From Pseudomonadota bacterium (GTDB taxonomy: Bacteria; Bdellovibrionota; FAC87; UBA2466): a DNA stretch of 20,126 nucleotides. Shown in pieces: positions 1-20,126 of the stretch (position 1 is its first letter; the number at the start of each line of letters is the position of its first letter). Below the pieces are notes generated by a model. The model had not been told where the DNA came from, searched no databases, and worked only from the letters and a program-made list of their open reading frames with translations. The stretch is from contig JAYUGC010000194.1 in the NCBI GenBank assembly GCA_043767805.1, forward strand, positions 1 through 20,126, in the 5' to 3' direction. A program made the position numbers and the translations under genes.

Positions 1-463
1 GCCGGGTTTCCAATTCGGAGATATGGGGCTGAAACTCTGGTTTCTTGTCCTTTAAGAATTTGGCGAGGTATCCAATGGCCGAGCTAAGCACCACGGACTT
101 TACATACTCAATTTCAGGGCCGAACTCCCGGGCGATGGCGCCTCCGAGGGGAGCCCGAGGCGCGCGCGGCAGAGCGGCGGACGGGCGGGGACTTGCGTCC
201 CCGCCTTTTCCGACAGCCATATTGCCTAGCAAAAAGCCACCGCCTACGGCGACTCCCACGCAGGTCCAAGGGCGTTTCTGGACTTGGTACTCAGGATTTA
301 GATGCGCCAGTGTTTCCGATACGGCGTTTTTGACGTCGGCGACGGAATCCTTTGCCTGCTCGTACTTACCTTCCACGATGGATCCGAACTCATGGAGGTT
401 CGCCTCGAGAGCGGCGCTGGTTTTATAGATGTCCTGGCGGATTTGTTCCGTTTTGCTAGGCAT
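1..463 (-). CDS. DUF3618/ElaB-like membrane-associated protein (3' end runs off the window)
   Basis: Read by hand; not in the ORF track because there is no stop in the window. ATG at 463 follows AGGAG. Translation: MPSKTEQIRQDIYKTSAALEANLHEFGSIVEGKYEQAKDSVADVKNAVSETLAHLNPEYQVQKRPWTCVGVAVGGGFLLG... The 'EQIRQDI' start is DUF3618-like and 'KRPW..VGVAVGGGFLLG' is a DUF883-type hydrophobic segment. Confidence 0.8.
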   Translation of the reverse strand, partial: MPSKTEQIRQDIYKTSAALEANLHEFGSIVEGKYEQAKDSVADVKNAVSETLAHLNPEYQVQKRPWTCVGVAVGGGFLLGNMAVGKGGDASPRPSAALPRAPRAPLGGAIAREFGPEIEYVKSVVLSSAIGYLAKFLKDKKPEFQPHISELETR

Positions 464-486
464 GAAGCGTCTCCTAAGAATCGAAG

Positions 487-831
487 TTAGTCTCTACGAG
501 CGCCGCGAACGACGGTCGCAATCAAGGCGCCAACGCCGAGGCCGATGGCCAAGGCCTGGAGCGGATACTTTTTCACGAGCGATGTGGCCTTTTTACCGGC
601 GTCCGCGAAGAAGTCTTCCGCGCCTTCGAGCCATTCACCCGCGTTAGACAAGCCTCCGTCGACAGCTTTCACGACGGCTTTGGCCTGCGGGCTGTCCATA
701 GCGGAGTCAAACACGTCTTCGGCCTTCTTCGCGAAGTCTCCAATGATGGTATTGGCTTCGTTAGCAACTTCCCGGCCCTTCGTGGCGGCTTCGTGACCTT
801 TTTTCTGAATTTCGTTACGTGCGGTTTCCAT
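487..831 (-). CDS. DUF883/ElaB/YqjD-like tail-anchored protein
   Basis: 114 aa with a helical Ala/Lys/Glu-rich body and a C-terminal 'VKKYPLQALAIGLGVGALIATVVRGARR' anchor. AGGAG RBS upstream. Confidence 0.85.
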   Translation of the reverse strand: METARNEIQKKGHEAATKGREVANEANTIIGDFAKKAEDVFDSAMDSPQAKAVVKAVDGGLSNAGEWLEGAEDFFADAGKKATSLVKKYPLQALAIGLGVGALIATVVRGARRD

Positions 832-871
832 GATCTAAATCTCCTGGTTACAAGTTTCGAGGATTACCTGG

Positions 872-887
872 TGCAAGGTGCGTACCA
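872..887 (-). promoter_or_regulatory. sigma54 (RpoN) -24/-12 promoter for the DUF883/DUF3618 genes
   Basis: Minus strand reads TGGTAC-GCACC-TTGCA, one mismatch to TGGCAC-N5-TTGCW with exact spacing, about 40 nt upstream of the ATG at 831. Confidence 0.75.
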
Positions 888-888
888 T

Positions 889-1128
889 TTACGCGCGGGG
901 CTCGCGTGCGGCGGGCGCTTTCGCCGTGAGGCGCCGCAGTATGAGGAAGGCGCCTATAAGAGGTAGCGGAGAAACGGAGTACCACCAGCGGCTCAAGGGC
1001 CGCGCAACCGCCTCTATTAGAGATGAGCGCTCGTCGCGCAACGGGCGCCACTCTTCATCCAGGTCGCGCTGATAGCGGGGCCGCGCATCTCCGAACAAGA
1101 CTTCATCCAAGTTTTTTAAAAGCTTCAT
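889..1128 (-). CDS. Small hypothetical protein with C-terminal hydrophobic segment (79 aa)
   Basis: Start reassigned from 1311 to the ATG at 1128 (MKLLKNLDEVLFGD...), which has an AGGA RBS and its own sigma54 motif. C-terminal 'WWYSVSPLPLIGAFLILRR'. Confidence 0.65.
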   Translation of the reverse strand: MKLLKNLDEVLFGDARPRYQRDLDEEWRPLRDERSSLIEAVARPLSRWWYSVSPLPLIGAFLILRRLTAKAPAAREPRA

Positions 1129-1158
1129 ATGAGTTTTCCTCCGGTTCACCTCGACATA

Positions 1159-1174
1159 CGCAACATTGATGCCA
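1159..1174 (-). promoter_or_regulatory. sigma54 -24/-12 promoter
   Basis: Minus strand reads TGGCAT-CAATG-TTGCG with exact spacing, about 30 nt upstream of the ATG at 1128. Confidence 0.75.
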
Positions 1175-1215
1175 GTGAAAATAGCTACAAATTCGTGACG
1201 AGCTCGGCGTTGACA

Positions 1216-1252
1216 CGTCTCTAAACGGGAACAGCGTCCGCTAACGGAGACA
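1216..1252. promoter_or_regulatory. Candidate tandem enhancer (UAS) sites for a sigma54 activator
   Basis: Two imperfect dyads 19 bp apart, CGTC-N10-AACA (1216-1233) and CGTC-N10-GACA (1235-1252), lying between the divergent sigma54 motifs. Confidence 0.4.
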
Positions 1253-1305
1253 ACCGTTTCCTCAAAAAAAGGACGCGCGCCGGAGATTTCTAGCGCGCGC
1301 GGCCG

Positions 1306-1321
1306 TGGCACGCCGGTTGCA
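1306..1321 (+). promoter_or_regulatory. sigma54 -24/-12 promoter for the DUF1328 operon
   Basis: TGGCAC-GCCGG-TTGCA, a perfect match to the consensus. Confidence 0.85.
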
Positions 1322-1418
1322 CTGACGATTTAGCACAACCTTCGGACTCGTCTATCGATCGCCGGGGGCAAACTTAGATGGGCTCCAAAGTAGAGCTCGT
1401 CCTTTTGGGAGGTAGATT

Positions 1419-1601
1419 ATGTTGAGAGCTGCGTTAGCCTTTTTCGTTTTGGCCCTGATCGCGATGTTCCTCGGCGCTAACGGCGTCGCGGGCGTTTCCC
1501 TGGAAGCGGGCAAGCTTCTTCTCATGGTGTTCTTGGTCCTCGCCATCGTTAGCGGTGTCGTTGGCTTGGTATCCGGGCGCGGTCCGCGCTCGCTCACTTA
1601 G
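1419..1601 (+). CDS. DUF1328 (UPF0391/YtjA-like) small membrane protein
   Basis: MLRAALAFFVLALIAMFLGANGVAGVSLEAGKLLLMVFLVLAIVS is the characteristic two-TM family pattern. GGAGG RBS. Confidence 0.92.
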   Translation: MLRAALAFFVLALIAMFLGANGVAGVSLEAGKLLLMVFLVLAIVSGVVGLVSGRGPRSLT

Positions 1602-1631
1602 TTTTACTCAATTGGAAAGCGGAGTTTTAAG

Positions 1632-1922
1632 ATGCGGAATTCTATGTTTAAGACCCTGATGGCTCTGTTGGCTGGCGTTAGTTTCTTTCTCGCGGCGGGC
1701 GTTAGTTTGCGCGCGGTAGCCAACGAAAGTACCGGCGAGAAGATTGAAAATAAAATGGACGAGGCTGGCAAAGACATGCGGAAGGGCAGCCGCAAGATGA
1801 AGCGCAAGGCGCGCAATGCGAGCGGTCACGGCAGCGTCGGCAAAGACATGAAAGACGCCGGCAAAGACGCGGGCGACGAGATCAAAACGGGCGCGAAGAA
1901 ACTCAAACAAAAGGTGGATTAA
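1632..1922 (+). CDS. Secreted hydrophilin / CsbD- or LEA-like helical protein
   Basis: Signal peptide followed by K/D/E/G/A-rich repeats (GKDMRK, GKDMKD, GKDAGD). GGAG RBS. Confidence 0.75.
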   Translation: MRNSMFKTLMALLAGVSFFLAAGVSLRAVANESTGEKIENKMDEAGKDMRKGSRKMKRKARNASGHGSVGKDMKDAGKDAGDEIKTGAKKLKQKVD

Positions 1923-1926
1923 TCCC

Positions 1927-2427
1927 ATGAGCATTTTCACGGAGCTCAAAAAGGATCACAAGCAGGTCAAGGCGCTTTGTAAGGCCATCGAGAAGGAAGA
2001 AGAGTCTCCGAAGAAGCGGTTGAAGCACTTCTTGGAGCTCGCGAACCTTCTTAGCCATCACACCTACGCTGAAGAAGAAGCCTTTTACGAACGCCTGAAG
2101 CCCGAAGGGGGCAAGGCGCGGGCCTTGGCGCTCGAAGGCTATGAAGAGCATCATGTCGCTGACTTTCTGCTCAGCGAGCTGAAGAACCTCTCCGTGGAAG
2201 ACGAGCACTGGACCGCCAAGTTCACGGTGCTGAAGGAATCGTTGGAGCACCACATCGAAGAGGAAGAAGAAGACATGTTCGCGACCGCCCGGAAGAAGTT
2301 TTCCAAGGCCGAGCTCGAACAGGCCGGTAAGGCTTTTCTAAAGCTCAAGAAGGCGGGAGATTCCATTCCTGATAAACACACGTTTGCGGGATCCCAACGG
2401 GGTCACGTCGGCGGCGCCCGCGCTTAA
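1927..2427 (+). CDS. Hemerythrin/HHE cation-binding domain protein
   Basis: Motifs LKKDH, HHTYAEEEAFY, EEHH and HHIEEEEEDMF. Confidence 0.92.
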   Translation: MSIFTELKKDHKQVKALCKAIEKEEESPKKRLKHFLELANLLSHHTYAEEEAFYERLKPEGGKARALALEGYEEHHVADFLLSELKNLSVEDEHWTAKFTVLKESLEHHIEEEEEDMFATARKKFSKAELEQAGKAFLKLKKAGDSIPDKHTFAGSQRGHVGGARA

Positions 2428-2449
2428 CTAGCCCCAAAGGAGTTTTCTC

Positions 2450-2758
2450 ATGGATCAGACACCACAGACCGGCGATTCTCGTCTCGAACAACAGGGGGCT
2501 ACCCTAGGCAGCGCTCATAGCGTCGTTCCCGATGGGAACATCCCAAAAGAAGCCTTACGCGAGAGTGCTCGGGCTCATGCCCGCAAGGGCTCTAAAGAAA
2601 CGGATTTCGACCAGAGCCGGGGCGGGGTCGGCGAGGCTAAGCTGGAAGCGACGGCCGGAAACGAGGCTTTGCGCCGCGGCCCTCCCTGGCGAGTGCTGGC
2701 GCTCGCGGGCCTGTCGATCGCGGCGGTGACGTTTTTTGTCGCTCGTTCTCGGCGATAA
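2450..2758 (+). CDS. Hypothetical protein with C-terminal membrane anchor
   Basis: AAGGAG RBS, a polar disordered body and the tail 'PPWRVLALAGLSIAAVTFFVARSRR'. Confidence 0.7.
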   Translation: MDQTPQTGDSRLEQQGATLGSAHSVVPDGNIPKEALRESARAHARKGSKETDFDQSRGGVGEAKLEATAGNEALRRGPPWRVLALAGLSIAAVTFFVARSRR

Positions 2759-2842
2759 GTCCTTTCCCGACGGCAAAGACACGGCACGAGGCAGTGTGCT
2801 AGAAGGAGGTCCTTCGGAACATCTATTGAGTAGGAGTTTTGC

Positions 2843-3922
2843 GTGGTCGCGTCTGCGCCCAATCGAAAAAATCAGGTCACTTTCATCACCTTTCTGCTCC
2901 TTTTGGGAGCCTTGGCGGTGGTCCTGTTTCGGATGTTCGGCCCGTATTTTCTAGCGCTCTTTATGGGCGCGATCTTGGCGCTGATGTTCCGTCCGCTCTT
3001 TCGCCGCCTTCGGTCGCGCGGGATGGGCGCCCGCCCTTCGTCCGCTCTGCTCACTCTGCTTCTTACTTTAGTGCTCATCGGTCCCGTGGCTTCCTTCTCG
3101 GTCATCGCCGTCAATCAAAGCATCGACTTCGCGAAAACGCTCTCGGGCTATCAAGGGCTCAATCTCTCATCGCTCGAAGGCTATCTCTTTCGTTTTCAGT
3201 CCATCCGGGATCTCGCGGGGAGCCGCGAGAATCTCACCTTGAAATTGCAAGACGAGATCCAGGGCTTCGGTCGTACCGCTTCCTCCTGGCTCGTGGTGCA
3301 ACTCTCGACCCTTCCGGACTTGGCCGTTCAGCTCACGCTGGTGCTGCTTACCTTCTATTTTTTCTTGATAGACGGCCCGAGGCTACTCGTTTGGATGCGG
3401 GATAAAGTACCGCTCGATGCCGACGTGCGGGAAATCCTCTACCGCTCCTTCAAGGATACCGCCATCTCTTCCATCTGGGCGACGGTGCTCGCGGCCGCGG
3501 TGCAGGCCGTGATTCTCTTCATCGGATTTCTGGTGCTTGGGGTGCCCGGGGCTTTCTTCGGAGCTTGCGTCACCTTCTTCTTTGCCTGGATTCCGGTCGT
3601 CGGGAGCGCGCCGGTTTGGATTGGCGCGGCTATTTATCTCTTCGCCCATCACGCGCCGGCTAGCGCGGCCGCCATGATAGGTTTCGGCATTCTGACGAGT
3701 GTCGCCGATCACATGGTGAAGCCATGGATGCTCAGGGGCAGAAGTCATCTCCACCCGCTCTTTGCGCTCGTCGGTATCTTTGGCGGCATTCACATGTTCG
3801 GTTTGCTCGGAGTTTTCTTCGGACCCATCCTGACGGCTTCTTTCGTCTCACTGCTCGAAATCTGGCCCGAAGTCCGGAAACGTTTCTTTGCCGGTCGTTT
3901 AACGCCTATGGAGGCCGCATGA
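2843..3922 (+). CDS. AI-2E family transporter (PerM/YdiK-like)
   Basis: 359 aa multi-TM protein with 'FYFFLIDG', 'IPVVGSAPVW', 'DHMVKP' and 'GGIHMFGLLGVFFGP'. GTG start with AGGAG RBS. Confidence 0.93.
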   Translation: MVASAPNRKNQVTFITFLLLLGALAVVLFRMFGPYFLALFMGAILALMFRPLFRRLRSRGMGARPSSALLTLLLTLVLIGPVASFSVIAVNQSIDFAKTLSGYQGLNLSSLEGYLFRFQSIRDLAGSRENLTLKLQDEIQGFGRTASSWLVVQLSTLPDLAVQLTLVLLTFYFFLIDGPRLLVWMRDKVPLDADVREILYRSFKDTAISSIWATVLAAAVQAVILFIGFLVLGVPGAFFGACVTFFFAWIPVVGSAPVWIGAAIYLFAHHAPASAAAMIGFGILTSVADHMVKPWMLRGRSHLHPLFALVGIFGGIHMFGLLGVFFGPILTASFVSLLEIWPEVRKRFFAGRLTPMEAA

Positions 3923-4995
3923 AAGCGCGCGTTTGGTTCTTGATGGTTATGATGCTGGCCGTCCGCGTAAACGCGGACGTCGCCGAACCGCCGGTTGAAT
4001 CTGGCTCCCAGGCCGCAGTGGAAAAGCCGGCGGAAGAGGCCGGAAGCTCCATGGCTCCCATCGTCGGCTACGAGCCGACTTTCGGGTTCATCGCGGGCGC
4101 TGCCTATTTCTATCAGAGCGAAAAAACCGACTGGGGCATCGATATAAGCACCAACTTTCACAAGGTGTATCAGGCGCACGGGCACGTGGCCCAGGATCTT
4201 GGATCTTCCTGGCAATACGAAATTCAACTCGGCGGCAATCAAGGTTACGACCCTTACTATGGTGAGGGCGGCGAAACCAAGGTGGGCGATCGCGTGAAGC
4301 TTTGGGGCGTGAGCTCCCGCAATGAAGTCCGTCTGGCTTTCAAGGTCTCGAAGAACGTGTCGTTTGGCATCGTCGGAGACCTGCGCGTGCATACGGAGAA
4401 TGGGACCGAGGACTCGCCGGCGCGGATGTTCCCGAATGAAACTTCTTTAGGAATCGGCGGCGAGGTCATCATCGATTACCGTAATCATCCCAATCGGCCG
4501 ACGAAAGGCTTTCTCTTGCGTACGCGCGGCACTGTCATTCCGCCGAAGTGGTCCACCGTGCCCAACTCAAAAGAGTTCGCTCAGCTGGAAAGTAGCTTCA
4601 CCGTGTATCAGGCGATCCTGGACGACATCATTCCGGACGTGGTCGCCGCGTTCCGGGTCATGGGCGGTTACACCTTTGGTCACTCGACCTATGGCTATGC
4701 CTACCGCCTGGGCGGTAGCGATCGGCTAAACGGGTATCTCGAAAACCGCTTCCGCGGGGATAAGTACTATCTCCAGCAGACCGAGCTTCGTTTTCCGATC
4801 TTCAAGATGGTTTCCGGCGCCGCGCTCCTGGGCTTTGGCGATGCGACTCATAGCGTTTTCAGCAATCCTAAAATGTCTTACGGCGTTGGCTTGCGTGTCG
4901 GGCTTCCGCCCGACTGGGTCAGCAAGGTGCGCATCGATCTCGCCTTCGGGAAAGATGAAAAAGGCGTCTTCGTCGACTACGGCCAAACTTTCTAG
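3919..4995 (+). CDS. Omp85/BamA-TamA family outer-membrane beta-barrel lacking POTRA domains
   Basis: Start reassigned to the ATG at 3919 (ATGA overlap with the upstream stop, GGAGG RBS, signal peptide MKARVWFLMVMMLAVRVNA). Has 'LGGSDRLNGYLENRFRG' (loop-6 RGY-like), 'ELRFPI', 'YGVGLR', 'VRIDLAFG' and a terminal beta-signal 'YGQTF'. Confidence 0.85.
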   Translation: MKARVWFLMVMMLAVRVNADVAEPPVESGSQAAVEKPAEEAGSSMAPIVGYEPTFGFIAGAAYFYQSEKTDWGIDISTNFHKVYQAHGHVAQDLGSSWQYEIQLGGNQGYDPYYGEGGETKVGDRVKLWGVSSRNEVRLAFKVSKNVSFGIVGDLRVHTENGTEDSPARMFPNETSLGIGGEVIIDYRNHPNRPTKGFLLRTRGTVIPPKWSTVPNSKEFAQLESSFTVYQAILDDIIPDVVAAFRVMGGYTFGHSTYGYAYRLGGSDRLNGYLENRFRGDKYYLQQTELRFPIFKMVSGAALLGFGDATHSVFSNPKMSYGVGLRVGLPPDWVSKVRIDLAFGKDEKGVFVDYGQTF

Positions 4996-5241
4996 GCGGC
5001 GAGTCTCGGCGCTTCGTTCAGGGCCGCCCCCCTGCCTTCGGGGTCCTACCTGGCCTCCTTGGCTGGACCTGGAGAGGGGCGGAGGGCAAAGAAGTGCGCT
5101 TGGGTATTTCAGCTTTTTGATGGGTGGCAGTAGGGTGGGGCGGTTGGAACGTTCCGCCCAGGAGCCGTTCTCCTTCCAGGCCGCCCATGAAATCCCTTTT
5201 TAATAGAGTGGCTAGTGCTACGCGCCAGAAGCGGCAATTTA

Positions 5242-5640
5242 TTATTTTTTGGGAGGCTTCGACCAGTCGAAGGCGCCTTTGCCTTCCATCCACGCCGCCG
5301 CTTTTTGGCGGAGCTCGGGAGTGGGCACGAGCCTAAGGAACGCGAGCACGTCGTCCGTGCCCATTTCCTTGCGGATGCGGCGGTAGGTGTCCAGATAAAC
5401 GCGAAACTTGTCCTCGGCTTCCGTGTCGAAGGAAGGCGGATAGCGATCGGAGATCTTGATGAAGGTCTCGACGGGCTCTTTCTTTTTGACCAGGTCGAGG
5501 GCGGTCTTTTCGTTGAAGGCGGTCGCGGGCACGTTCAAAAGCAGACAGAGCGCACGGCAGGCCCGTGGAAAGCCTTCCTTCTGGTTCGCGCTTTGCTCAA
5601 CACTTTCCCAGGCCGAGCGAACTCTTTCTTCGAGACCCAT
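5242..5640 (-). CDS. Hypothetical helical protein (132 aa)
   Basis: Protein-like composition. Starts 5 nt after the stop of the upstream hydrolase-like gene, so probably in the same operon. No family recognised. Confidence 0.7.
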   Translation of the reverse strand: MGLEERVRSAWESVEQSANQKEGFPRACRALCLLLNVPATAFNEKTALDLVKKKEPVETFIKISDRYPPSFDTEAEDKFRVYLDTYRRIRKEMGTDDVLAFLRLVPTPELRQKAAAWMEGKGAFDWSKPPKK

Positions 5641-12596: not shown

Positions 12597-15500
12597 ATGC
12601 AAGGTGTCGACTCAGCCCAAAGGAACCAGCAAATCAAGCGAACACTTCTCTTTCATGTTGTGCTTTTCCTTGCGGCCACCGGCCTCGCAGGTTGTTTTGA
12701 GTTCAGAGGCACGTCCACCGTCGACGACGGTTACAAGCCCGGGCTCAATCCCGCCCTTCAGACTCCCCATGTTTCCCGGGTGACGTCGCCCGCGACCGAC
12801 GGGTTGTTCGGGCCGGGAGAGGACATCGAGATCGAGGTGGTCTTCGACCGCGCGGTCATCGTGACCGGAGTTCCCCAGCTGACCCTCGAGACGGGGACGA
12901 CGGACGCGGTCGTCGATTACCGCGAGGGCAACGGAACCACGATGCTAACGTTTCTTTACACGACGGGAAGCGGGCAATCGGCCTCCCGCCTCGATTACGT
13001 TTCCCCTTCCGCGCTAGCCCTAAATGGCGGCGCCATTCGCGGCGCTGGCGACTTTGACGCCGATCTCACGCTCCCCGTGCCCGGAGCGAGCGGCTCGCTT
13101 TCCGAGCAAAGGAATTTAGTCATCGATGGGCTACTCCCCGCCGTTACCTCTGTCACCTCGAGCACGACCAATGGCACTCACGGCGCGGACTTGTCGGTCA
13201 CGGTTCAAGTGGTCTTCAATAAGTTCGTGACCGTTACGGGGGCACCGACGCTGACTCTCGAGACCGGCGCTACCGACGCGGTCGCGACCTATCTCTCGGG
13301 AAGCGGCACGAGCACGCTCTCGTTTCTCTACGCCATCTCGGCCGGCGAAAGTAGCCTCGATCTCGATTATGTCGCGACGACTTCGCTCGCCCTAAACGGC
13401 GGTGCCATCCTCGACGCTTTCAGCAATGTCGCCGATCGCACGCTTCCCGTTCCCGGCGCGGCGGGCTCGCTCGCGGCGAATAAGGCCATCGTCATCGACA
13501 CGACTCAGCCCACGGTAACGAGCGTCAGCTCCACGACGGCAAACGGCACTTACGGCGTGGGGCAAGCGGTCTCAATTCAGATTGCGTTCTCAAGGGCCAT
13601 CACCGTCACGGGCACGCCGCAGCTGACCCTCGAGACGGGAGCGACCGACGCCGTCGTGAATTACGCGTCGGGGTCCGGCACTACTACGCTTACTTTCACT
13701 TACACGGTGGCAAGCGGTGAAACCTCCCTCGATCTGGATTACGTCGCGACGACTTCGCTTACCTTGAATGGCGGGACCCTCAAGGACGCGTTCAATAATG
13801 CGGCCGTTCTTACGCTAGCCGCCCCGGGAGCCGCGGGCTCGCTCGGCGCGATTAAAGCGCTCGTCATCGATACGGCCGCGCCCACGGTGACGGGAGTGAG
13901 CTCGTCTACCGCCAATGGGACTTACGGCACGGGCCAGTCGGTCTCCGTCGAGGTGACTTTCAGTAAGACCGTGGTCGTGACGGGTACGCCTCAGTTGACG
14001 CTCGAGACCGGAACGACAGACGCGGTCGCGAGCTACACTTCCGGAGGTGGCAGTGCGGTTCTCGTTTTTTCCTATACCGTGGGGTCGGGTCAAAGCAGCG
14101 TGGATCTCGATTATGTCGCGACCACTTCACTGGCTTTGAATGGGGGAACGATCAAAGACGGCTTCAATAACTCCGCCGTGCTCACGCTCGCGTCCCCCGG
14201 GGCGGCTGGGTCTCTGGGGGAGACCAAGGCGATCGTCATCGATACGACGGTGCCCACGGTGACGGCAGTCACTTCTTCTCTCGCCAACGGAATCTACGGG
14301 GTCGGTCAAGTCGTTCCGATACAAATTACCTTTAGTAAGGCCGTAACGGTCACGGGAACGCCCCGCCTGACGCTCGAGACGGGAGCGACGGACGCCGTCG
14401 TCAATTACACCTCGGGAAGTGGCACCGCGACCCTCAGTTTTGATTACACGGTCGCGACGGGACAGACCGCCTCCGACTTGGACTACACCAGCACGACGGC
14501 CCTCGTGTTAAATGGAGGGACCGTAAAGGATGTCTTCAACAACCCGGCGACGTTGACTCTGCCCGCGCCGGCGGCAGCCGGCTCTTTCGGCGCGAACAAG
14601 AATCTGGTCATCGACGGCCTCGCGCCGACGGTCACGAGCGTCACTTCGCTGACCGACGACGGACTTTATGGATTGGGTCAGCTCATCACTATCCGCGTCA
14701 CCTTCAGTGAGCCGGTGACCGTAACGGGCACTCCGCAGCTCACTCTCGAGACGGGCGCGACCGACGCCGTCGTCGATTACTCATCGGGAAGCGGCACCAC
14801 GGTTTTGGTATTCGCGTACACGGTAGGCGTAGGGCAGGTTAGCGCCGATCTCGACTACGCTTCCGCCGCCGCGCTCACTCTTAATGGCGGTACCATCGCC
14901 GACGCCACGCCGAACGCGGCGGTGTTGACGCTTCCGGCGCCGGGAGCCGCGGGATCTCTTGGGATGGCCAAGGATCTCGTCGTCGATAGCGTGAACCCGC
15001 TGATTACCTCTATCACTTCCGCTAAGCCAAATGGAACCTATGGCGTAGGGACGGTCATCGGCATCGCCGTAGCCTTCAATCGCGCGGTTTCCGTCACGGG
15101 TACGCCGCAGCTCACTCTCGAGACGGGCGCGAGCGACGCCGTCGTCAACTATACGTCGGGAAGCGGCACCGCCACCCTCTTTTTCAATTACACGGTTGCC
15201 GCGGGACACGCGAGCGCGGATCTTCAGTATCTTTCCGTTTCGGCGCTGGCGCTAAATGGTGGCACGATTAAAGATGTGGGCACGCTGAATGCTCGTCTCA
15301 ATCTCCCCGCGCTGGCCTCTCCCAGTTCTTTGGCGGGAAGTAAGGCGATAGTCATCGATACCTCCGCCCCCCTAGTTTCAACGGTGAATTCCGCTACGGC
15401 AGATGGCATTTACGTCCATGATGACATCATAGCCGTAGAGGTCACCTTCAATCGGGCGGTAACCGTTACGGGGACTCCGCAGCTCACTCTGGAGACGGGA

Positions 15501-18500
15501 GCGACGGACGCCGTAGTCAATTATGCTACCGGATCCGGGACGGCGACTCTCGTTTTTAACTATACCGTCGCGTCCGGGGAAAATAGCGCGGATTTGGATT
15601 ACGTGGGAGTCGGCTCCCTCGCCTTAAACGGAGGCACCATCGTCGATGGCTTGGGCAATGCGGCCTCTCTCGCTCTGCCGGCGCCTGGAGCCCTAAATTC
15701 GCTCGGCGCCACTCGCGCCTTCGTGGTCGATACCATCAGCCCAGTCACGCGAGATGTGACGGCGCTCGTCGCGAGTGGGACCTACGGCGTGGGGGATACG
15801 TTAGGCATTCAGCTCCTATTCAATCGGCCGGTAACCGTTACGGGGACTCCGCAGCTCACTCTCGAAACGGGAGCGACTGACGCCGTCGTCAACTATGTCT
15901 CCGGAAGCGGTACGGACACTTTGCTTTTCAACTACACGGTCGCCTCTGGCCAGAACAGCGTACGGCTCGACTACCCGACGAAGACTTCGCTCGCGTTGAA
16001 TGGCGGCACGATCAAGGACGCCACGACCTTGAACGCGCTCCTGGTTTTGCCTGCTCCGGCCAGTCTCAGTTCGCTTTCCGGCAATAAGGCCATCGTCATC
16101 GATACGACCTCGCCGCTCGTTGCCTCGGTGAATGCGTCGTCGGCCGATGGGTTATATACGACGAGCGACTCCATTACCGTGGAAGTGAACTTCGACGAGC
16201 CCGTGGACGTGACCGGCACGCCGCAGCTCACCCTCGAGACGGGCGCGACGGATGCGGTGGCGATTTACGTCTCGGGATCCGGAACTCCGACACTCACTTT
16301 CTCGTATACGGTGGCCGCTGGAAACGTCAGCGCCGATTTGGATTACGTCGCGACCACGTCGCTTGCGCTAAACGGCGGCACGATTAAAGATGGCGCCCGC
16401 AACGCTGCGAATCTCACGCTTCCCGCTCCGGGAGCCACCGGATCCTTGGGCGCCAACAAAGCCATCGTCGTCGAAACGATTCGCCCCCTCGTGGTCAACG
16501 TAAGCTCGAGCTTGGCGGATGGACCTTACGGCGCGGGTCAGGTCGTTCCTGTTCAGATTACCTTCAACCGAGCGGTCAACGTCACAGGAAATCCTCGCGT
16601 GCTTCTCGAAACGGGAAATACCGACGGGTATGCGACGTATGCTTCGGGGACGGGCACCGCCGTCTTGGTGTTCAATTACACCTCGGTGAGCCCTCATTTC
16701 GCCGCCGATTTGGATTACGTTCAGCCCGGGGTCATCGATCTGAACGGGGGAACCATTCAGGATCTCTCCGCGCTCGCCGCCGTGCTGACGCTTCCGCCTT
16801 TGGGCGCCACGAGTCTAGCTGGAAACAAGGACCTACTCATCGATGCGGTAAGCCCGGCTGTGACCAATGTGACGACGGATGTTTCAGTCATGGACGGAAT
16901 CTACGGATCCGGCGCGTTCGCCATTACCGTGCAGTTCGACGAGGTCGTGCTGGTCACGGGCACGCCCCGGCTCACGCTCGAGACGGGCGCGACCGACGCG
17001 GTCGTCGATTACTCGTCGGGAAGTGGGACCGATACGTTAGTTTTCTCCTACACCATTGCGCCCGGGCAAAACTCCCCGGATTTGGATTACGTCGCGACCA
17101 CATCGCTTGCGTTAAACGGCGGCACGATCCGAGATCTCTTAGCTAATAACTCCGTTCTCACGCTGCCCGCGCCGGGGGCGACTGGATCTCTGGGGGCCAA
17201 TAAGGCCGTCGTCATCGATACGATTCATCCCTTGGTCACGAGTGTGACGAGCTCCGTGGCCAACGGGACGTATGGCAACGGCGCGGTCGTGCCCGTCCAA
17301 GTGGTGTTCAATCGAGTGGTGAACGTCACGGGCGTTCCTCAGCTTACTCTCAGTCTTTTACCAGCGCCGCGAGCGATCGATTACAGCTCCGGCACGGGGA
17401 CAAACACTTTGGTTTTCAACTATACAGTCCTGGCGGGGGATGCCGCCGCCGATCTCGATTACGTGGATGGGAGCTCACTCGCGTTTAACGGCGGCACGAT
17501 CCAGGATGGGTCGGCTGTCGCCGCGGTGCTGAGCCTTTGGCCCGTCGGGATATCGGGTTCCCTTTCCGCGGCGAAGAACCTCGTCATCGATACCAGTGTC
17601 GCCTCGGTCGTCGCGGTGAGCTCGCCGGCCATCAACGGGGCGTATGGGGCGGGTAGTGCCTTCAGCCTGGAAGTTCAGTTCTCCGATGTCGTCACCGTCA
17701 CGGGTACGCCGACCCTCACTCTCGAGACGGGAGCGACGGACGCCGTCGTGAACTATACATCGGGGAGCGGGACCGCGACCCTCACTTTTCAATATGTCGT
17801 CGCCTCGGGCGACAATAGCGCCGACCTCGACTACGCCTCGGTGAGCGCGCTCTTTCTGAATGGAGGAACGATCATTGGCGCTAGCGGCAACGCGGCCTCG
17901 CTGACTCTGCCCGTCCCCGGAGGCGTGGGATCTCTGTCGCAGGCCAAGGATATTTTCGTCGACACCGCGCATGCGGTGGTGGACCAGGTATCGTCCGTAA
18001 AAGCGGACGGCATCTATACTGTGGGTGAGTCCATTTCCATCGACGTTCAATTTAATCGGGTGGTGAACGTCACCGGCGTGCCGCAGCTTACTCTCGAGAC
18101 CGGAGCCAGCGATACGCTCGCTTCCTACGCTAGTGGGTCCGGCACGAATACCCTTAGCTTCACTTACGTGGTGCAAGCGGGCAACGGAACTATCGACTTG
18201 GAAGCCGTGACGACCAATCCGCTCGTCTTTGACGGCGGCACGATTCAAGACGGGGGCCTAGCGAACGCCAATCTCATGATTCCCATTCCGGAAGACCCGC
18301 GCTCCTTGTCGACCTTGAAAAGCTTGGCCATCGATACGACGAGTCCCTTGATTGCCAGCGTGGACTCGACTCTCGCCGACGGAATCTACTCGGTGGGCGA
18401 GGTCATTCCGATTTCCGTGAATTTCAACGAGCCGGTCAATGTAACCGGCGTCCCTCGTCTTACTTTGGAGACGGGCGCGACCGACGCCGTGGTGAATTAC

Positions 18501-20126
18501 GTATCCGGCAGCGGGACCGCGGCGCTCCTTTTCACTTACACGATTGCCAGCCCGCAAAACACCGTGCGTCTCGATTACGTCGCGACGACGTCCTTGGCCT
18601 TGAATGCGGGCACCATCTCGGATGTTCCGGGCAATACCGCGGTCCTGACGCTTCCCGTGCCGGGATCCCCTGGCTCGCTCGGGGTGGGGAGGGCGTTCGT
18701 GGTGGACACGGTGAACCCCGTGGTGACTCAGGTGACGTCCGCGGATCCCGATGCGACCTACGGCGTCGCTCAGGTGATAGGCGTCCAGGTGAGGTTTAAT
18801 CGCGCGGTCAACGTGACGGGCACGCCCCGCCTTCTTTTAGAGACGGGTCTCGCGGACGTTTTCGTAAACTATTCCTCCGGCTCCGGCACGACCACGCTTC
18901 TCTTCAACTATACGGTAGCCGCGGGCCACACCTCGAGTGATTTGGAATATTTCGCCTTGAACTCTCTTTCCTTGAACGGCGGTACTATCCGGGACGCCGG
19001 TCTACTTAATGCACAGCTCACCTTGCCGGCCTTAGCCAGTCCCCGATCCTTGGGAGGCTCGAAGGACTTGGTCGTTAGCGGCCGAAGGGTTGGCAAGAAG
19101 CTCGCCGGCAAGTTCAAGAGCGGCGGCGCGGCCAAATCCGGCAAGGTTACCAAGGGAGGGGTGGGCTCCGGAAGCGTTTCCCCGTCGCCTTCCCCTTTGA
19201 CCGTGACTGGCGCCAAGGGCGCGAGTCAATTCGGCGTGGCCATTTCCGGTTTGAAGGATCTTAACGGAGATGGCGTGGGAGATTTCATTGTCGGCGAGCC
19301 CAGTGAAAAGGGACGGGGCTTGGCTCATGTTTACAATGGCGCCACCGGTCAACTGCTCTTCGATCTTCGGGGCTCCGAGGACGGCGGTCTGTTTGGCGCC
19401 GCCGTGTCCGGCGTTCCCGATCTGAACGGGGATGGCGTCGACGAAATTATGGTGGGCGAACCCAGCGCCGCGGGTCGGGGGCGCGTGCACGTTTTCGACG
19501 GGAGAAGCGGACGCGCGCTCTACGCGCTCACTGGCACCGAGAGCCGCGCGCAATTTGGAGCTTCCCTCGCGGGCGTGTCGGATGTCGATGGAGACGGACT
19601 GGGCGATCTTTTCGTAGGTGAGCCCTTCGCCAGTGGCGGCGGAACACGGCGGGGCCGGGCGCATCTGCTAAGCGGAGCGAGTGGAACGGCGATCGACCGT
19701 TTCTCCGGTGCCGAAGACGAAGGGGGCTTCGGCATTAGTGTTGCCGAGGCGGGCGACGTGGATGACGACGGCCGGACTGATTTCGTGGTGGGAGCGCCCT
19801 TTGTCGCGGGAGGCGGAACGCGCCGGGGCGCCGCCTATGTCTTTCGCGGTCTCGATCGCACCCTGATCGCGCGGATTTCGGGCAAGGCCGATCACAGCAA
19901 TCTCGGTTACTCCGTCGTGGGATTGGGAGACGTCGATAGCGACGGGTATGGGGATCTCTTATTGGGAGCGCCCGCGCTTTCGGGAGGCGCAAGAGCGTGG
20001 GTTTTTGTCGTCAGTGGCCATGACGGAAAGACTCGGTACGGCATTCCTGGGAGCGAAGAAAAAACGGGCTTTGGCGAAGCGCTCGCTCAGGCGGGCGACG
20101 GGAATGCGGACGGTGGGATGGATTTT
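12597..20126 (+). CDS. Giant surface lipoprotein/adhesin: 17 Ig-like repeats plus FG-GAP beta-propeller (3' end runs off the window; at least 2510 aa)
   Basis: Read by hand in frame 3. MQGVDSAQRNQQIKRTLLFHVVLFLAATGLAG-C gives a lipobox with Cys at 12693. Frame checks at the repeat anchors and at the window end (...AGDGNADGGMDF) are in phase. Its absence from the ORF track is consistent with no in-frame stop. The start codon has a weak RBS. Confidence 0.92.
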   Translation, partial: MQGVDSAQRNQQIKRTLLFHVVLFLAATGLAGCFEFRGTSTVDDGYKPGLNPALQTPHVSRVTSPATDGLFGPGEDIEIEVVFDRAVIVTGVPQLTLETGTTDAVVDYREGNGTTMLTFLYTTGSGQSASRLDYVSPSALALNGGAIRGAGDFDADLTLPVPGASGSLSEQRNLVIDGLLPAVTSVTSSTTNGTHGADLSVTVQVVFNKFVTVTGAPTLTLETGATDAVATYLSGSGTSTLSFLYAISAGESSLDLDYVATTSLALNGGAILDAFSNVADRTLPVPGAAGSLAANKAIVIDTTQPTVTSVSSTTANGTYGVGQAVSIQIAFSRAITVTGTPQLTLETGATDAVVNYASGSGTTTLTFTYTVASGETSLDLDYVATTSLTLNGGTLKDAFNNAAVLTLAAPGAAGSLGAIKALVIDTAAPTVTGVSSSTANGTYGTGQSVSVEVTFSKTVVVTGTPQLTLETGTTDAVASYTSGGGSAVLVFSYTVGSGQSSVDLDYVATTSLALNGGTIKDGFNNSAVLTLASPGAAGSLGETKAIVIDTTVPTVTAVTSSLANGIYGVGQVVPIQITFSKAVTVTGTPRLTLETGATDAVVNYTSGSGTATLSFDYTVATGQTASDLDYTSTTALVLNGGTVKDVFNNPATLTLPAPAAAGSFGANKNLVIDGLAPTVTSVTSLTDDGLYGLGQLITIRVTFSEPVTVTGTPQLTLETGATDAVVDYSSGSGTTVLVFAYTVGVGQVSADLDYASAAALTLNGGTIADATPNAAVLTLPAPGAAGSLGMAKDLVVDSVNPLITSITSAKPNGTYGVGTVIGIAVAFNRAVSVTGTPQLTLETGASDAVVNYTSGSGTATLFFNYTVAAGHASADLQYLSVSALALNGGTIKDVGTLNARLNLPALASPSSLAGSKAIVIDTSAPLVSTVNSATADGIYVHDDIIAVEVTFNRAVTVTGTPQLTLETGATDAVVNYATGSGTATLVFNYTVASGENSADLDYVGVGSLALNGGTIVDGLGNAASLALPAPGALNSLGATRAFVVDTISPVTRDVTALVASGTYGVGDTLGIQLLFNRPVTVTGTPQLTLETGATDAVVNYVSGSGTDTLLFNYTVASGQNSVRLDYPTKTSLALNGGTIKDATTLNALLVLPAPASLSSLSGNKAIVIDTTSPLVASVNASSADGLYTTSDSITVEVNFDEPVDVTGTPQLTLETGATDAVAIYVSGSGTPTLTFSYTVAAGNVSADLDYVATTSLALNGGTIKDGARNAANLTLPAPGATGSLGANKAIVVETIRPLVVNVSSSLADGPYGAGQVVPVQITFNRAVNVTGNPRVLLETGNTDGYATYASGTGTAVLVFNYTSVSPHFAADLDYVQPGVIDLNGGTIQDLSALAAVLTLPPLGATSLAGNKDLLIDAVSPAVTNVTTDVSVMDGIYGSGAFAITVQFDEVVLVTGTPRLTLETGATDAVVDYSSGSGTDTLVFSYTIAPGQNSPDLDYVATTSLALNGGTIRDLLANNSVLTLPAPGATGSLGANKAVVIDTIHPLVTSVTSSVANGTYGNGAVVPVQVVFNRVVNVTGVPQLTLSLLPAPRAIDYSSGTGTNTLVFNYTVLAGDAAADLDYVDGSSLAFNGGTIQDGSAVAAVLSLWPVGISGSLSAAKNLVIDTSVASVVAVSSPAINGAYGAGSAFSLEVQFSDVVTVTGTPTLTLETGATDAVVNYTSGSGTATLTFQYVVASGDNSADLDYASVSALFLNGGTIIGASGNAASLTLPVPGGVGSLSQAKDIFVDTAHAVVDQVSSVKADGIYTVGESISIDVQFNRVVNVTGVPQLTLETGASDTLASYASGSGTNTLSFTYVVQAGNGTIDLEAVTTNPLVFDGGTIQDGGLANANLMIPIPEDPRSLSTLKSLAIDTTSPLIASVDSTLADGIYSVGEVIPISVNFNEPVNVTGVPRLTLETGATDAVVNYVSGSGTAALLFTYTIASPQNTVRLDYVATTSLALNAGTISDVPGNTAVLTLPVPGSPGSLGVGRAFVVDTVNPVVTQVTSADPDATYGVAQVIGVQVRFNRAVNVTGTPRLLLETGLADVFVNYSSGSGTTTLLFNYTVAAGHTSSDLEYFALNSLSLNGGTIRDAGLLNAQLTLPALASPRSLGGSKDLVVSGRRVGKKLAGKFKSGGAAKSGKVTKGGVGSGSVSPSPSPLTVTGAKGASQFGVAISGLKDLNGDGVGDFIVGEPSEKGRGLAHVYNGATGQLLFDLRGSEDGGLFGAAVSGVPDLNGDGVDEIMVGEPSAAGRGRVHVFDGRSGRALYALTGTESRAQFGASLAGVSDVDGDGLGDLFVGEPFASGGGTRRGRAHLLSGASGTAIDRFSGAEDEGGFGISVAEAGDVDDDGRTDFVVGAPFVAGGGTRRGAAYVFRGLDRTLIARISGKADHSNLGYSVVGLGDVDSDGYGDLLLGAPALSGGARAWVFVVSGHDGKTRYGIPGSEEKTGFGEALAQAGDGNADGGMDF
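12753..19076 (+). repeat. 17 x 372-bp (124-aa) intragenic tandem repeats, Ig-like
   Basis: The Leu codon of the LETG motif recurs at 12885, 13257, 13629, 14001, 14373, 14745, 15117, 15489, 15861, 16233, 16605, 16977, 17349 (degenerate LSLL), 17721, 18093, 18465 and 18837. Consensus: PTVTSVSS..ANGTYG.G..V.I.V.F...V.VTGTPQLTLETGATDAVVNY.SGSGT.TL.F.YTV..G..S.DLDYV....L.LNGGTI.D...NAA.LTLP.PG..GSL...KAIVID. Confidence 0.95.
19197..20126 (+). repeat. FG-GAP (integrin-alpha-like) repeats, six visible, within the giant CDS
   Basis: FG...DLNGDGVGDFIVGEP, FG...DLNGDGVDEIMVGEP, FG...DVDGDGLGDLFVGEP, FG...DVDDDGRTDFVVGAP, LG...DVDSDGYGDLLLGAP and FG...DGNADGGMDF (cut by the window edge). Confidence 0.93.

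Follow-up and report, generated by a model that had tools for sequence, protein, structure and literature searches.

The subject here is a contig of 20,126 bases, JAYUGC010000194.1 of assembly GCA_043767805.1 (Bdellovibrionota), which was analysed over its full length and is referred to in what follows as the window; it is the entirety of contig C194 of that assembly. Toward its start lies a cluster of genes, here termed the island, which includes genes for a DUF1328 protein, for a hemerythrin-like protein, and for small membrane-anchored proteins, and three short motifs, designated P1, P2, and P3, are found ahead of these genes. The three motifs probably are working sigma-54 (RpoN) promoters, with an uncultured, Pseudobdellovibrionaceae-like lineage that is without an RpoS-, SigB-, or PhyR-type system thus placing small envelope and dormancy proteins behind sigma-54. 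A preliminary description of this DNA had proposed such wiring, i.e., a stress or dormancy toolkit run through RpoN and an enhancer-binding protein, and the proposal is supported in silico by the motifs, by their conservation, by an enrichment of stress-type families behind such motifs, by the presence of rpoN, and by the lack of RpoS. What we infer beyond this is transcription from the sites, a role in stress, and the identity of an activator along with the signal to which it would respond, with family names being the sole pointer toward a stress function for the genes of the island.

Promoter Motifs of the Island

The usual sigma-54 consensus is TGGCACG-N4-TTGCW, and the same consensus is returned by a matrix derived from this genome's own sites. 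Scanning the window with the stricter pattern TGGYAY-N5-TTGC yields three matches, at 873-887 (minus strand), 1160-1174 (minus strand), and 1306-1320 (plus strand), as compared with a chance expectation of 0.02, and none of the 100 shuffles of the sequence that served as the null gets to three. The corresponding features are as follows:

872..887, minus strand: P1, predicted sigma-54 promoter, TGGTACGCACCTTGCA (887..872); strict pattern match; heads the genes for 114-aa and 154-aa tail-anchored proteins
1159..1174, minus strand: P2, predicted sigma-54 promoter, TGGCATCAATGTTGCG (1174..1159); strict pattern match; heads the gene for a 79-aa membrane protein
1306..1321, plus strand: P3, predicted sigma-54 promoter, TGGCACGCCGGTTGCA; strict pattern match and full consensus; heads the DUF1328, 96-aa, and hemerythrin-like genes

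In all three the GG of the -24 element and the GC of the -12 element are exactly 10 nucleotides (nt) apart, as is expected of a sigma-54 promoter, and all three are intergenic, face a gene, and exceed chance expectation in the window. P3 scores 22.1 and 21.8 with the first and second position weight matrices, respectively (these matrices are described below), while P1, which differs from the full consensus in having T rather than C at position 4, scores 18.1 and 17.1. The start codon is 36 nt away from the 24-nt scoring window for P1, 26 nt for P2, and 93 nt for P3, and each of the three faces a same-strand open reading frame (ORF) that carries a GGAG-type Shine-Dalgarno-like run. The three -24/-12 motifs that the preliminary description had reported at these positions thus are real, and they do point, as had also been claimed, toward a ribosome-binding site and an ATG, i.e., toward same-strand ORFs found 26-93 nt away.

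That the motifs might be chance matches is exceedingly improbable. Such a reading has in its favor the short length of the motif, and nothing else. Against it are the three matches in the window versus the 0.02 expected, the retention of the sites in a related genome (below), and the distribution of the same strict pattern over the genome as a whole, where 68 of 83 matches are intergenic although just 10.3% of the sequence is non-coding, and where 61 of the 83 are found no more than 300 nt upstream of a same-strand gene.

Sigma Factors and Activators of the Genome

The assembly (4.52 Mb in 204 contigs, 57.9% G+C, scored 100% complete) encodes what these promoters would require. Had there been no rpoN in the genome then the proposal would have failed at the outset; rpoN instead is there in full, encoding AID, CBD, and DBD domains, and its product is 71-81% identical to RpoN of Pseudobdellovibrionaceae, of Bdellovibrionaceae, and of Bdellovibrionota metagenome-assembled genomes. 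Enhancer-binding proteins also are plentiful, with 22 matches to PF00158, the sigma-54 interaction domain, approximately 19 of them strong.

Genes of the sigma-70 family number seven, that is, an RpoD-size frame, RpoH, FliA, and four frames of the size of extracytoplasmic function (ECF) sigma factors, 172-216 aa in length. No RpoS or SigB is found among these seven. The RpoH assignment is based on 275.7 bits with NF005143 (cut-off 241), versus just 150.5 bits with the RpoS model (cut-off 378.7), and a PhyR-type fusion is judged, by frame length alone, to be out for the four small frames because 172-216 aa is too short. A dedicated stress sigma factor of the sigma-70 family, i.e., one of the RpoS, SigB, or EcfG type, thus was not found in the genome. 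The check for rpoS may be widened to 41 genomes drawn from the family, order, and phylum, with this genome included, in which RpoS as an equivalog is above cut-off in 0 of the 41 and rpoN is present in 40.

Conservation of the Motifs

Conservation was considered with a same-genus genome, G001, and with a sample of relatives consisting of 40 genomes of the family, order, and phylum. The G001 locus is syntenic with the island, that is, with genes for 114-aa and 79-aa proteins divergent from DUF1328, 96-aa, and hemerythrin genes, and with protein identities of 36-83% (36% for the 79-aa protein and 57% for the 96-aa protein). On aligning the regulatory regions of the window and G001, all three promoter boxes are seen as conserved blocks amid diverged flanks. 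The orthologous sites score 19.4 for P1 and 20.0 for P3, while the P2 block is retained in G001 as CGCAACAT.G.TGCCA. Immediately after the G001 hemerythrin gene there is a conserved 132-aa gene (82% identical).

These observations bear on whether transcription might come mainly from unrecognised sigma-70, RpoH, or ECF promoters, with the sigma-54 sites secondary or poised and of little output. We consider that to be quite improbable. There is precedent for it, as many sigma-54 binding sites in E. coli are described as inactive or intragenic (PMC4591121), and a simple sigma-70 scan is an insensitive one. With that simple and insensitive scan, no sigma-70-like promoter is found at 830-1420, the sole match over positions 1-5400 being at 5270-5241 (minus strand). 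The sites of the island furthermore are intergenic, are rightly oriented, are 26-93 nt from start codons, and are kept where flanking sequence has diverged.

Across the 40 relatives, a matrix match of at least 11 was looked for on the same strand within 700 nt upstream of homologues. For DUF1328 such a site is present at 15 of 15 loci (this genome's own row left out), with 13 of the sites 38-70 nt from the Pfam match. For CsbD it is present at 17 of 23 loci (own row as well as six sub-cut-off rows excluded) and for hemerythrin at 22 of 27 non-own loci, under the same thresholds. Same-strand downstream controls for the DUF1328 and CsbD loci gave 3 matches in 22,500 nt and 0 in 32,236 nt. Positive loci include ones from other families of the phylum, so that the conservation expected of functional motifs is seen both in G001, for all three sites, and well beyond the genus. 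DUF1328 and CsbD genes, in addition, are close neighbours, no more than a few kb apart, in at least five relatives (G025, G020, G034, G006, and G001), and the arrangement of the island itself thus recurs.

Stress-Type Families behind Sigma-54 Sites

Regulons of RpoS and SigB in model bacteria include ElaB/YqjD-like proteins, YtjA/DUF1328, CsbD, OsmY (BON), KGG/YciG-GsiB, YeaQ/Transgly_assoc, and small heat-shock proteins. Here a gene was counted as behind a sigma-54 site if it was at position 4 or less of a run of genes headed by such a site, which is the case for 433 of 4227 genes (10%), and comparison with this background was by one-sided Fisher test. Copies of the families named beforehand are few: DUF883 0, DUF1328 1, CsbD 1, BON 5, and hemerythrin 4. 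Eight of these 11 genes are behind sigma-54 sites (odds ratio 23.8, p = 1.4e-6), which is the genome-wide enrichment that a stress toolkit wired to sigma-54 predicts. Among families added later, KGG is behind a site in 1 of 1 case, Transgly_assoc in 2 of 2, and HSP20 in 1 of 2.

A Predicted Genome-Wide Sigma-54 Network

A first matrix was built on strict-pattern sites and, at a score of at least 12, gives 253 matches, 204 of them intergenic and 178 oriented toward a gene. A softer second matrix gives 280 intergenic versus 92 coding matches at the same score and, at 11.5 or more, predicts 255 oriented promoters with a median distance of 46 nt to the start codon (211 of the 255 being within 100 nt). 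These promoters, which include 12 divergent pairs, head co-directional runs containing 487 of 4227 genes (11.5%). Sigma-54 consequently is a major rather than niche sigma factor here, with a regulon that is predicted to be very large for a 4.5-Mb genome, and within that very large network the stress set makes up one enriched part.

Genes downstream of sigma-54 sites were annotated with Pfam (285 of 286 tabulated genes, one giant protein having been left out) and are mixed. They include flagellar genes (FliL/M/N, FlgF/G/A), a secretin and its ATPase, five S8 proteases (subtilases), M48 peptidases, Lon, DUF4360 proteins, LpxC, LptF/G of lipopolysaccharide (LPS) export, and fatty-acid genes. Stress-type genes among them are KGG, BON (twice), CsbD, hemerythrin, HSP20, and Transgly_assoc, and further AhpC, cytochrome c peroxidase, MscS, and a SpoIIE/RsbW-like pair.

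The stress genes are clustered, and a second and denser sigma-54 island is found on contig C3 (19,208 bases), where 13 promoters are predicted in 19 kb as compared with an average over the genome of 0.56 per 10 kb. Among the proteins encoded there are KGG, BON together with a partner of 195 aa, a number of tiny membrane proteins, and an ElaB-like/Holin-X/186-aa trio, and the island has its own activator, consisting of receiver (REC), AAA+, and helix-turn-helix (HTH) domains, along with a kinase and a response regulator.

As a separate observation, the hexamer GAATAC/GTATTC occurs in 69 of the 255 sigma-54 upstream regions (84 copies versus 23 expected), often in a direct repeat, ..AC-N5-GAATAC, of 11-nt period and at variable distance from the -24 box. 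It is absent at the promoters of the window and may be the site of a global co-regulator.

A Candidate Activator and Its Candidate Site

On contig C172 the gene for a hybrid kinase (HisKA-HATPase-REC-Hpt) is followed by one for a REC-AAA+ activator with a lid domain. In G001 the orthologue of this activator (80% identical) is on one contig with 69-aa, 201-aa, and 93-aa genes, CsbD, and an outer-membrane protein (OMP), adjoining the orthologue of the island. As this synteny places their orthologues side by side, C172 and C194 probably adjoin in their own genome, an adjacency for which the G001 synteny is the only basis given that the end of C172 and the start of C194 do not overlap. If the two contigs do adjoin, then what is suggested is a kinase-activator pair about 3-4 kb from the promoters of the window.

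A candidate binding site for this activator is the dyad TGTCTC-N6-GAGACA, which is spacing-specific: With no more than one mismatch, 9 of 17 copies are intergenic at N6 versus 0-3 at spacings 2-10. A matrix was built from those nine intergenic copies, and of its 15 best intergenic matches 9 are close to a predicted sigma-54 promoter, at positions that range from 3 nt inside it to 95 nt upstream. Dyads linked to promoters in this way include three on C172, i.e., at the OMP-CsbD operon and at two more promoters, and also the ElaB-like trio on C3, and the dyad is seen again at CsbD operons in G001 and in a further genome, G004. In the window there is the following:

1216..1252, no strand assigned: two adjacent weak dyads, CGTCTC-N6-GGAACA at 1216-1233 and CGTCCG-N6-GAGACA at 1235-1252, between the divergent P2 and P3; candidate activator site

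Scored with the dyad matrix these have values of 11.1 (1216-1233) and 9.1 (1235-1252), and their GTC/GAC cores are among the few invariant columns of the window/G001 alignment. It is the fixed N6 spacing that is informative, as GAGAC/GTCTC pairs at any spacing are not enriched (7 of 255 promoter upstream regions versus 5.0 in shuffles), and a search of the 255 regions for perfect 5-mer dyads found no dominant shared enhancer. The C172 REC-AAA+ protein thus is put forward as the most likely, though putative, activator of the island, an assignment that we would consider to have roughly even chances of being correct.

The perfect-dyad search also turned up CTGTC-N9-GACAG, at five promoters, and GTGAC-N7-GTCAC, at four, which mark separate subsets of sigma-54 promoters (on contigs C18, C58, C62, C140, and C182 for the former and C62, C66, and C81 for the latter). 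These dyads likely are sites of other activators.

Weighing the Reading

The most substantial alternative is that the promoters are real without there being a unified stress regulon, that is, with many activators each running small modules and with the island serving instead envelope remodelling or a phase of the life cycle, such as a non-growing, attack-type phase. The size of the network is consistent with this, with 255 promoters heading genes of very mixed function, as is the encoding of about 19 activators, the marking of other promoter subsets by other dyads, the occurrence of the TGTCTC dyad at a minority of stress promoters, and the possession by the C3 island of an activator, kinase, and response regulator of its own. 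A collection of unrelated modules, by contrast, does not readily account for an over-representation of stress-type families behind sigma-54 sites of approximately 24-27-fold relative to all genes, nor for a retention of that link in family-, order-, and phylum-level relatives, and no other candidate stress sigma was found in the genome. We take this alternative to be unlikely, and rank it nonetheless ahead of either of the two considered above.

The preferred reading remains one of sigma-54 control of a stress-type kit, and several points weigh against it. P2 is the weakest of the three sites: It scores 13.7 with the first matrix but is under the cut-off of 11.5 with the second, and it ends in TTGCG, i.e., in G rather than A or T, as is seen in just 1 of 178 accepted sites of the genome. 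The enrichment of the seven families taken together, 12 of 16 genes behind sigma-54 sites versus 433 of 4227 (p = 1.4e-9), is an inflated figure because KGG, Transgly_assoc, and HSP20 were picked after having been seen downstream of sites. The other 4 of the 16 are without a site: a hemerythrin on C124, an HSP20 on C110, a 552-aa BON-containing protein on C81, and a BON gene on C20, with the gene upstream of the last of these abutting a contig end. The 4227 predicted genes come from our own crude gene caller, and the relatives, in sharing ancestry, do not supply loci that are independent trials. Sigma-54 control alone, moreover, does not mean stress, because flagellar, secretion, protease, lipid, and LPS genes are headed by such sites as well.

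Others of these points concern the activator. Its loop reads GAFTDA rather than GAFTGA, and Pfam finds no HTH in it at E <= 0.001; its last 50 residues, judged by eye, look like a Fis-type helix-turn-helix. The dyads of the window have three mismatches each, because of which they are suggestive only as an activator site. At the loci of relatives, the TGTCTC dyad accompanies 3 valid of 83 sigma-54 sites, versus 0.35 expected and with a fourth set aside as an edge artefact, and with so small a share the activator assignment may not generalise.

The mechanism that would follow can be stated in terms of these parts. The hybrid kinase would sense a signal and phosphorylate the C172 activator (REC-AAA+ with a putative HTH), which then would bind, 45-95 nt upstream of the -24 box, to dyads resembling TGTCTC-N6-GAGACA and, through ATP hydrolysis, open closed sigma-54 complexes at the divergent P2 and P3 and probably also at P1. 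P3 would drive the DUF1328, 96-aa, and hemerythrin-like genes, while P2 and P1 would drive genes for three small tail-anchored membrane proteins on the minus strand. More generally, with stress-type genes placed behind sigma-54 promoters that are conserved, the survival kit probably is turned on by an ATP-driven activator, with DUF1328, CsbD, BON, KGG, Transgly_assoc, HSP20, and hemerythrin-like genes presumably silent until an AAA+ ATPase acts. What would be made is a set of small proteins, either anchored in the membrane or periplasmic, along with a hemerythrin-like protein by which translation may be damped. Extended to RpoS-less Bdellovibrionota of this type, the reading would have sigma-54 and two-component AAA+ activators take over from the general-stress sigma factor, with the kit held strictly off, with the arrangement conserved from genus to phylum, and with all of this belonging to a sigma-54 network of unusual size. 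This broader version is offered tentatively, its chances being in our estimation somewhat short of even.

Relation to Known Systems

General stress responses are, as a matter of textbook description, instances of sigma-factor replacement (RpoS, SigB, EcfG). The gene content of the RpoS (Gammaproteobacteria), SigB (Bacillota), and EcfG/PhyR (Alphaproteobacteria) systems overlaps with the kit seen here. Their means of control differs, however, as replacement of the sigma factor in those systems is via proteolysis, partner switching, or anti-sigma factors, whereas the promoters here are of the -24/-12 class, which need ATP hydrolysis by an activator and have essentially no basal activity. If the reading is correct, then the same kit of genes is run by sigma-54 without leaky expression, with kinase signalling and ATP hydrolysis, and not sigma-factor competition, determining the output, and with each island addressable by its own activator. 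Predatory-type Bdellovibrionota alternate between growing and non-growing states, and for them the reading would bear on how the switch to dormancy and survival is controlled. A regulatory context would be supplied as well for DUF1328, for ElaB-like proteins, and for PA2171-like hemerythrins, and there are concrete experimental handles in the three promoters, the candidate dyad, and the pairing of kinase and activator.

With the classical sigma-54 envelope and stress modules, PspF-psp, ZraSR-zraP, and NtrBC at glnAp2, the likeness would instead be one of mechanism, i.e., a -24/-12 promoter, upstream dyads, an AAA+ activator, and often divergent pairs that share an enhancer. Each of those systems, by contrast, consists of one or a few operons and addresses one specific stress, whereas here the sigma-54 class holds most of the genome's general-stress-type small proteins, with the link retained across a phylum-level sample.

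Closest among published systems is DVU3305 of Desulfovibrio vulgaris Hildenborough, which is described as a sigma-54 activator for general stress responses within a three-component system (PMC3333781, PMC4641369). It resembles the arrangement proposed here in being a two-component REC-AAA+ sigma-54 activator found beside a kinase, in having a binding site that is conserved in relatives, and in controlling adjacent operons of small membrane and hypothetical proteins, ones which there are up under several stresses. It differs in that its targets are UspA-type and hypothetical proteins, kdp, and a transporter rather than the DUF1328/CsbD/BON/KGG/hemerythrin set; in that its regulon is small, within a sigma-54 set for that genome of roughly 70 operons; and in that it includes a Lon-protease response regulator, no such partner being seen beside the C172 activator. 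Because a general-stress sigma-54 activator thus has been published, the suggestion in the preliminary description of a possibly undescribed architecture needs to be softened. Within the open-access literature no publication was found linking DUF1328, CsbD, hemerythrin, or ElaB-like genes to sigma-54, nor one describing a stress regulon under sigma-54 in bacteria of the Bdellovibrio type. Sigma-54 has been argued to control the cell exterior (Francke et al. 2011, PMC3162934).

Genes of the Island

The genes of the island, with their coordinates, are as follows:

2..463, minus strand: 154-aa protein, truncated at its 3' end where the contig begins; N-terminus helical, with a glycine-zipper membrane segment in addition, ElaB-like
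487..831, minus strand: 114-aa tail-anchored amphipathic protein of ElaB/YtxH-like architecture
889..1128, minus strand: 79-aa small protein with a C-terminal hydrophobic segment; GGAGG 8-9 nt ahead of its ATG
1419..1601, plus strand: DUF1328 (YtjA-type) small membrane protein; PF07043, 41.1 bits versus a cut-off of 27
1632..1922, plus strand: 96-aa secreted lysine-rich protein of no known family
1927..2427, plus strand: hemerythrin-HHE protein; PF01814, 52.1 bits versus a cut-off of 25.3
2450..2758, plus strand: 102-aa protein with a C-terminal membrane anchor; an ORF whose place in the sigma-54 unit is uncertain
2843-3922, plus strand: AI-2E family transporter; PF01594, 155.7 bits
3919-4995, plus strand: Omp85-type outer-membrane protein; PF01103, 38.6 bits

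The 154-aa and 114-aa proteins have an ElaB-like build, consisting of an amphipathic helical head and a glycine-zipper tail anchor, and it is this architecture that survives of a DUF883 (ElaB/YqjD) label given to them previously. Membership in that family is not supported, since the 154-aa protein matches DUF883_C (E = 0.0012; 18.9 bits versus a cut-off of 27) and YtxH (E = 0.0086) only below the Pfam cut-offs, the 114-aa protein is without any Pfam match, and Pfam DUF883 has 0 matches in the whole genome. An exhaustive HMMER search with the 114-aa protein found 51 homologues at E <= 0.001, of which 41 were aligned, with three long matches (more than 200 residues) and seven short or partial ones left out. 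Pfam matches among those 41 are to Apolipoprotein (10), YtxH (7), DUF883_C (6), and DUF883 (2). Word-index homologue searches with the 114-aa and 96-aa proteins gave only the protein itself and one close copy.

Family labels of the DUF1328 and hemerythrin proteins were upheld, both being above their Pfam cut-offs, and the DUF1328 gene is the only copy in the genome. A CsbD-like protein that had been listed for the island is not there, as PF05532 matches no protein of the window; the single CsbD of the genome is on C172, behind a sigma-54 site. Neither the 79-aa protein nor the 102-aa protein belongs to a family according to Pfam or NCBIfam, and the 96-aa protein likewise has no match in either, its nearest Atlas clusters being unnamed and a CsbD cluster reaching just 0.79.

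The hemerythrin-HHE protein matches NF053874, the PA2171 family, over residues 6-143 (E = 5.4e-23), with 81.5 bits being far below the equivalog cut-off of 190. It thus appears to resemble that persister family distantly, and not to be a member of it at the equivalog level. PA2171 itself, from Pseudomonas aeruginosa, is hemerythrin-like, binds ribosomes and FtsZ, represses translation, and promotes persisters, and its regulator is described as still unknown (PMC13041383).

The preliminary description had counted about nine genes behind the three motifs, which holds as a number of co-directional ORFs, with three of these on the minus strand and the other six on the plus strand. The last three of the latter (102-aa, AI-2E, and Omp85; 2450-4995) are missing at the orthologous locus, G001:C128, and no sigma-54 site is found in the gap of 84 nt ahead of the AI-2E/Omp85 pair. 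That pair is co-directional with the P3 unit, and whether it belongs to a sigma-54 unit is uncertain.

At the other end of the window, a giant ORF (12597-20126, plus strand; more than 2510 aa) runs off the contig. It encodes tandem repeats of approximately 100 residues followed by FG-GAP-like repeats and is probably a surface adhesin.

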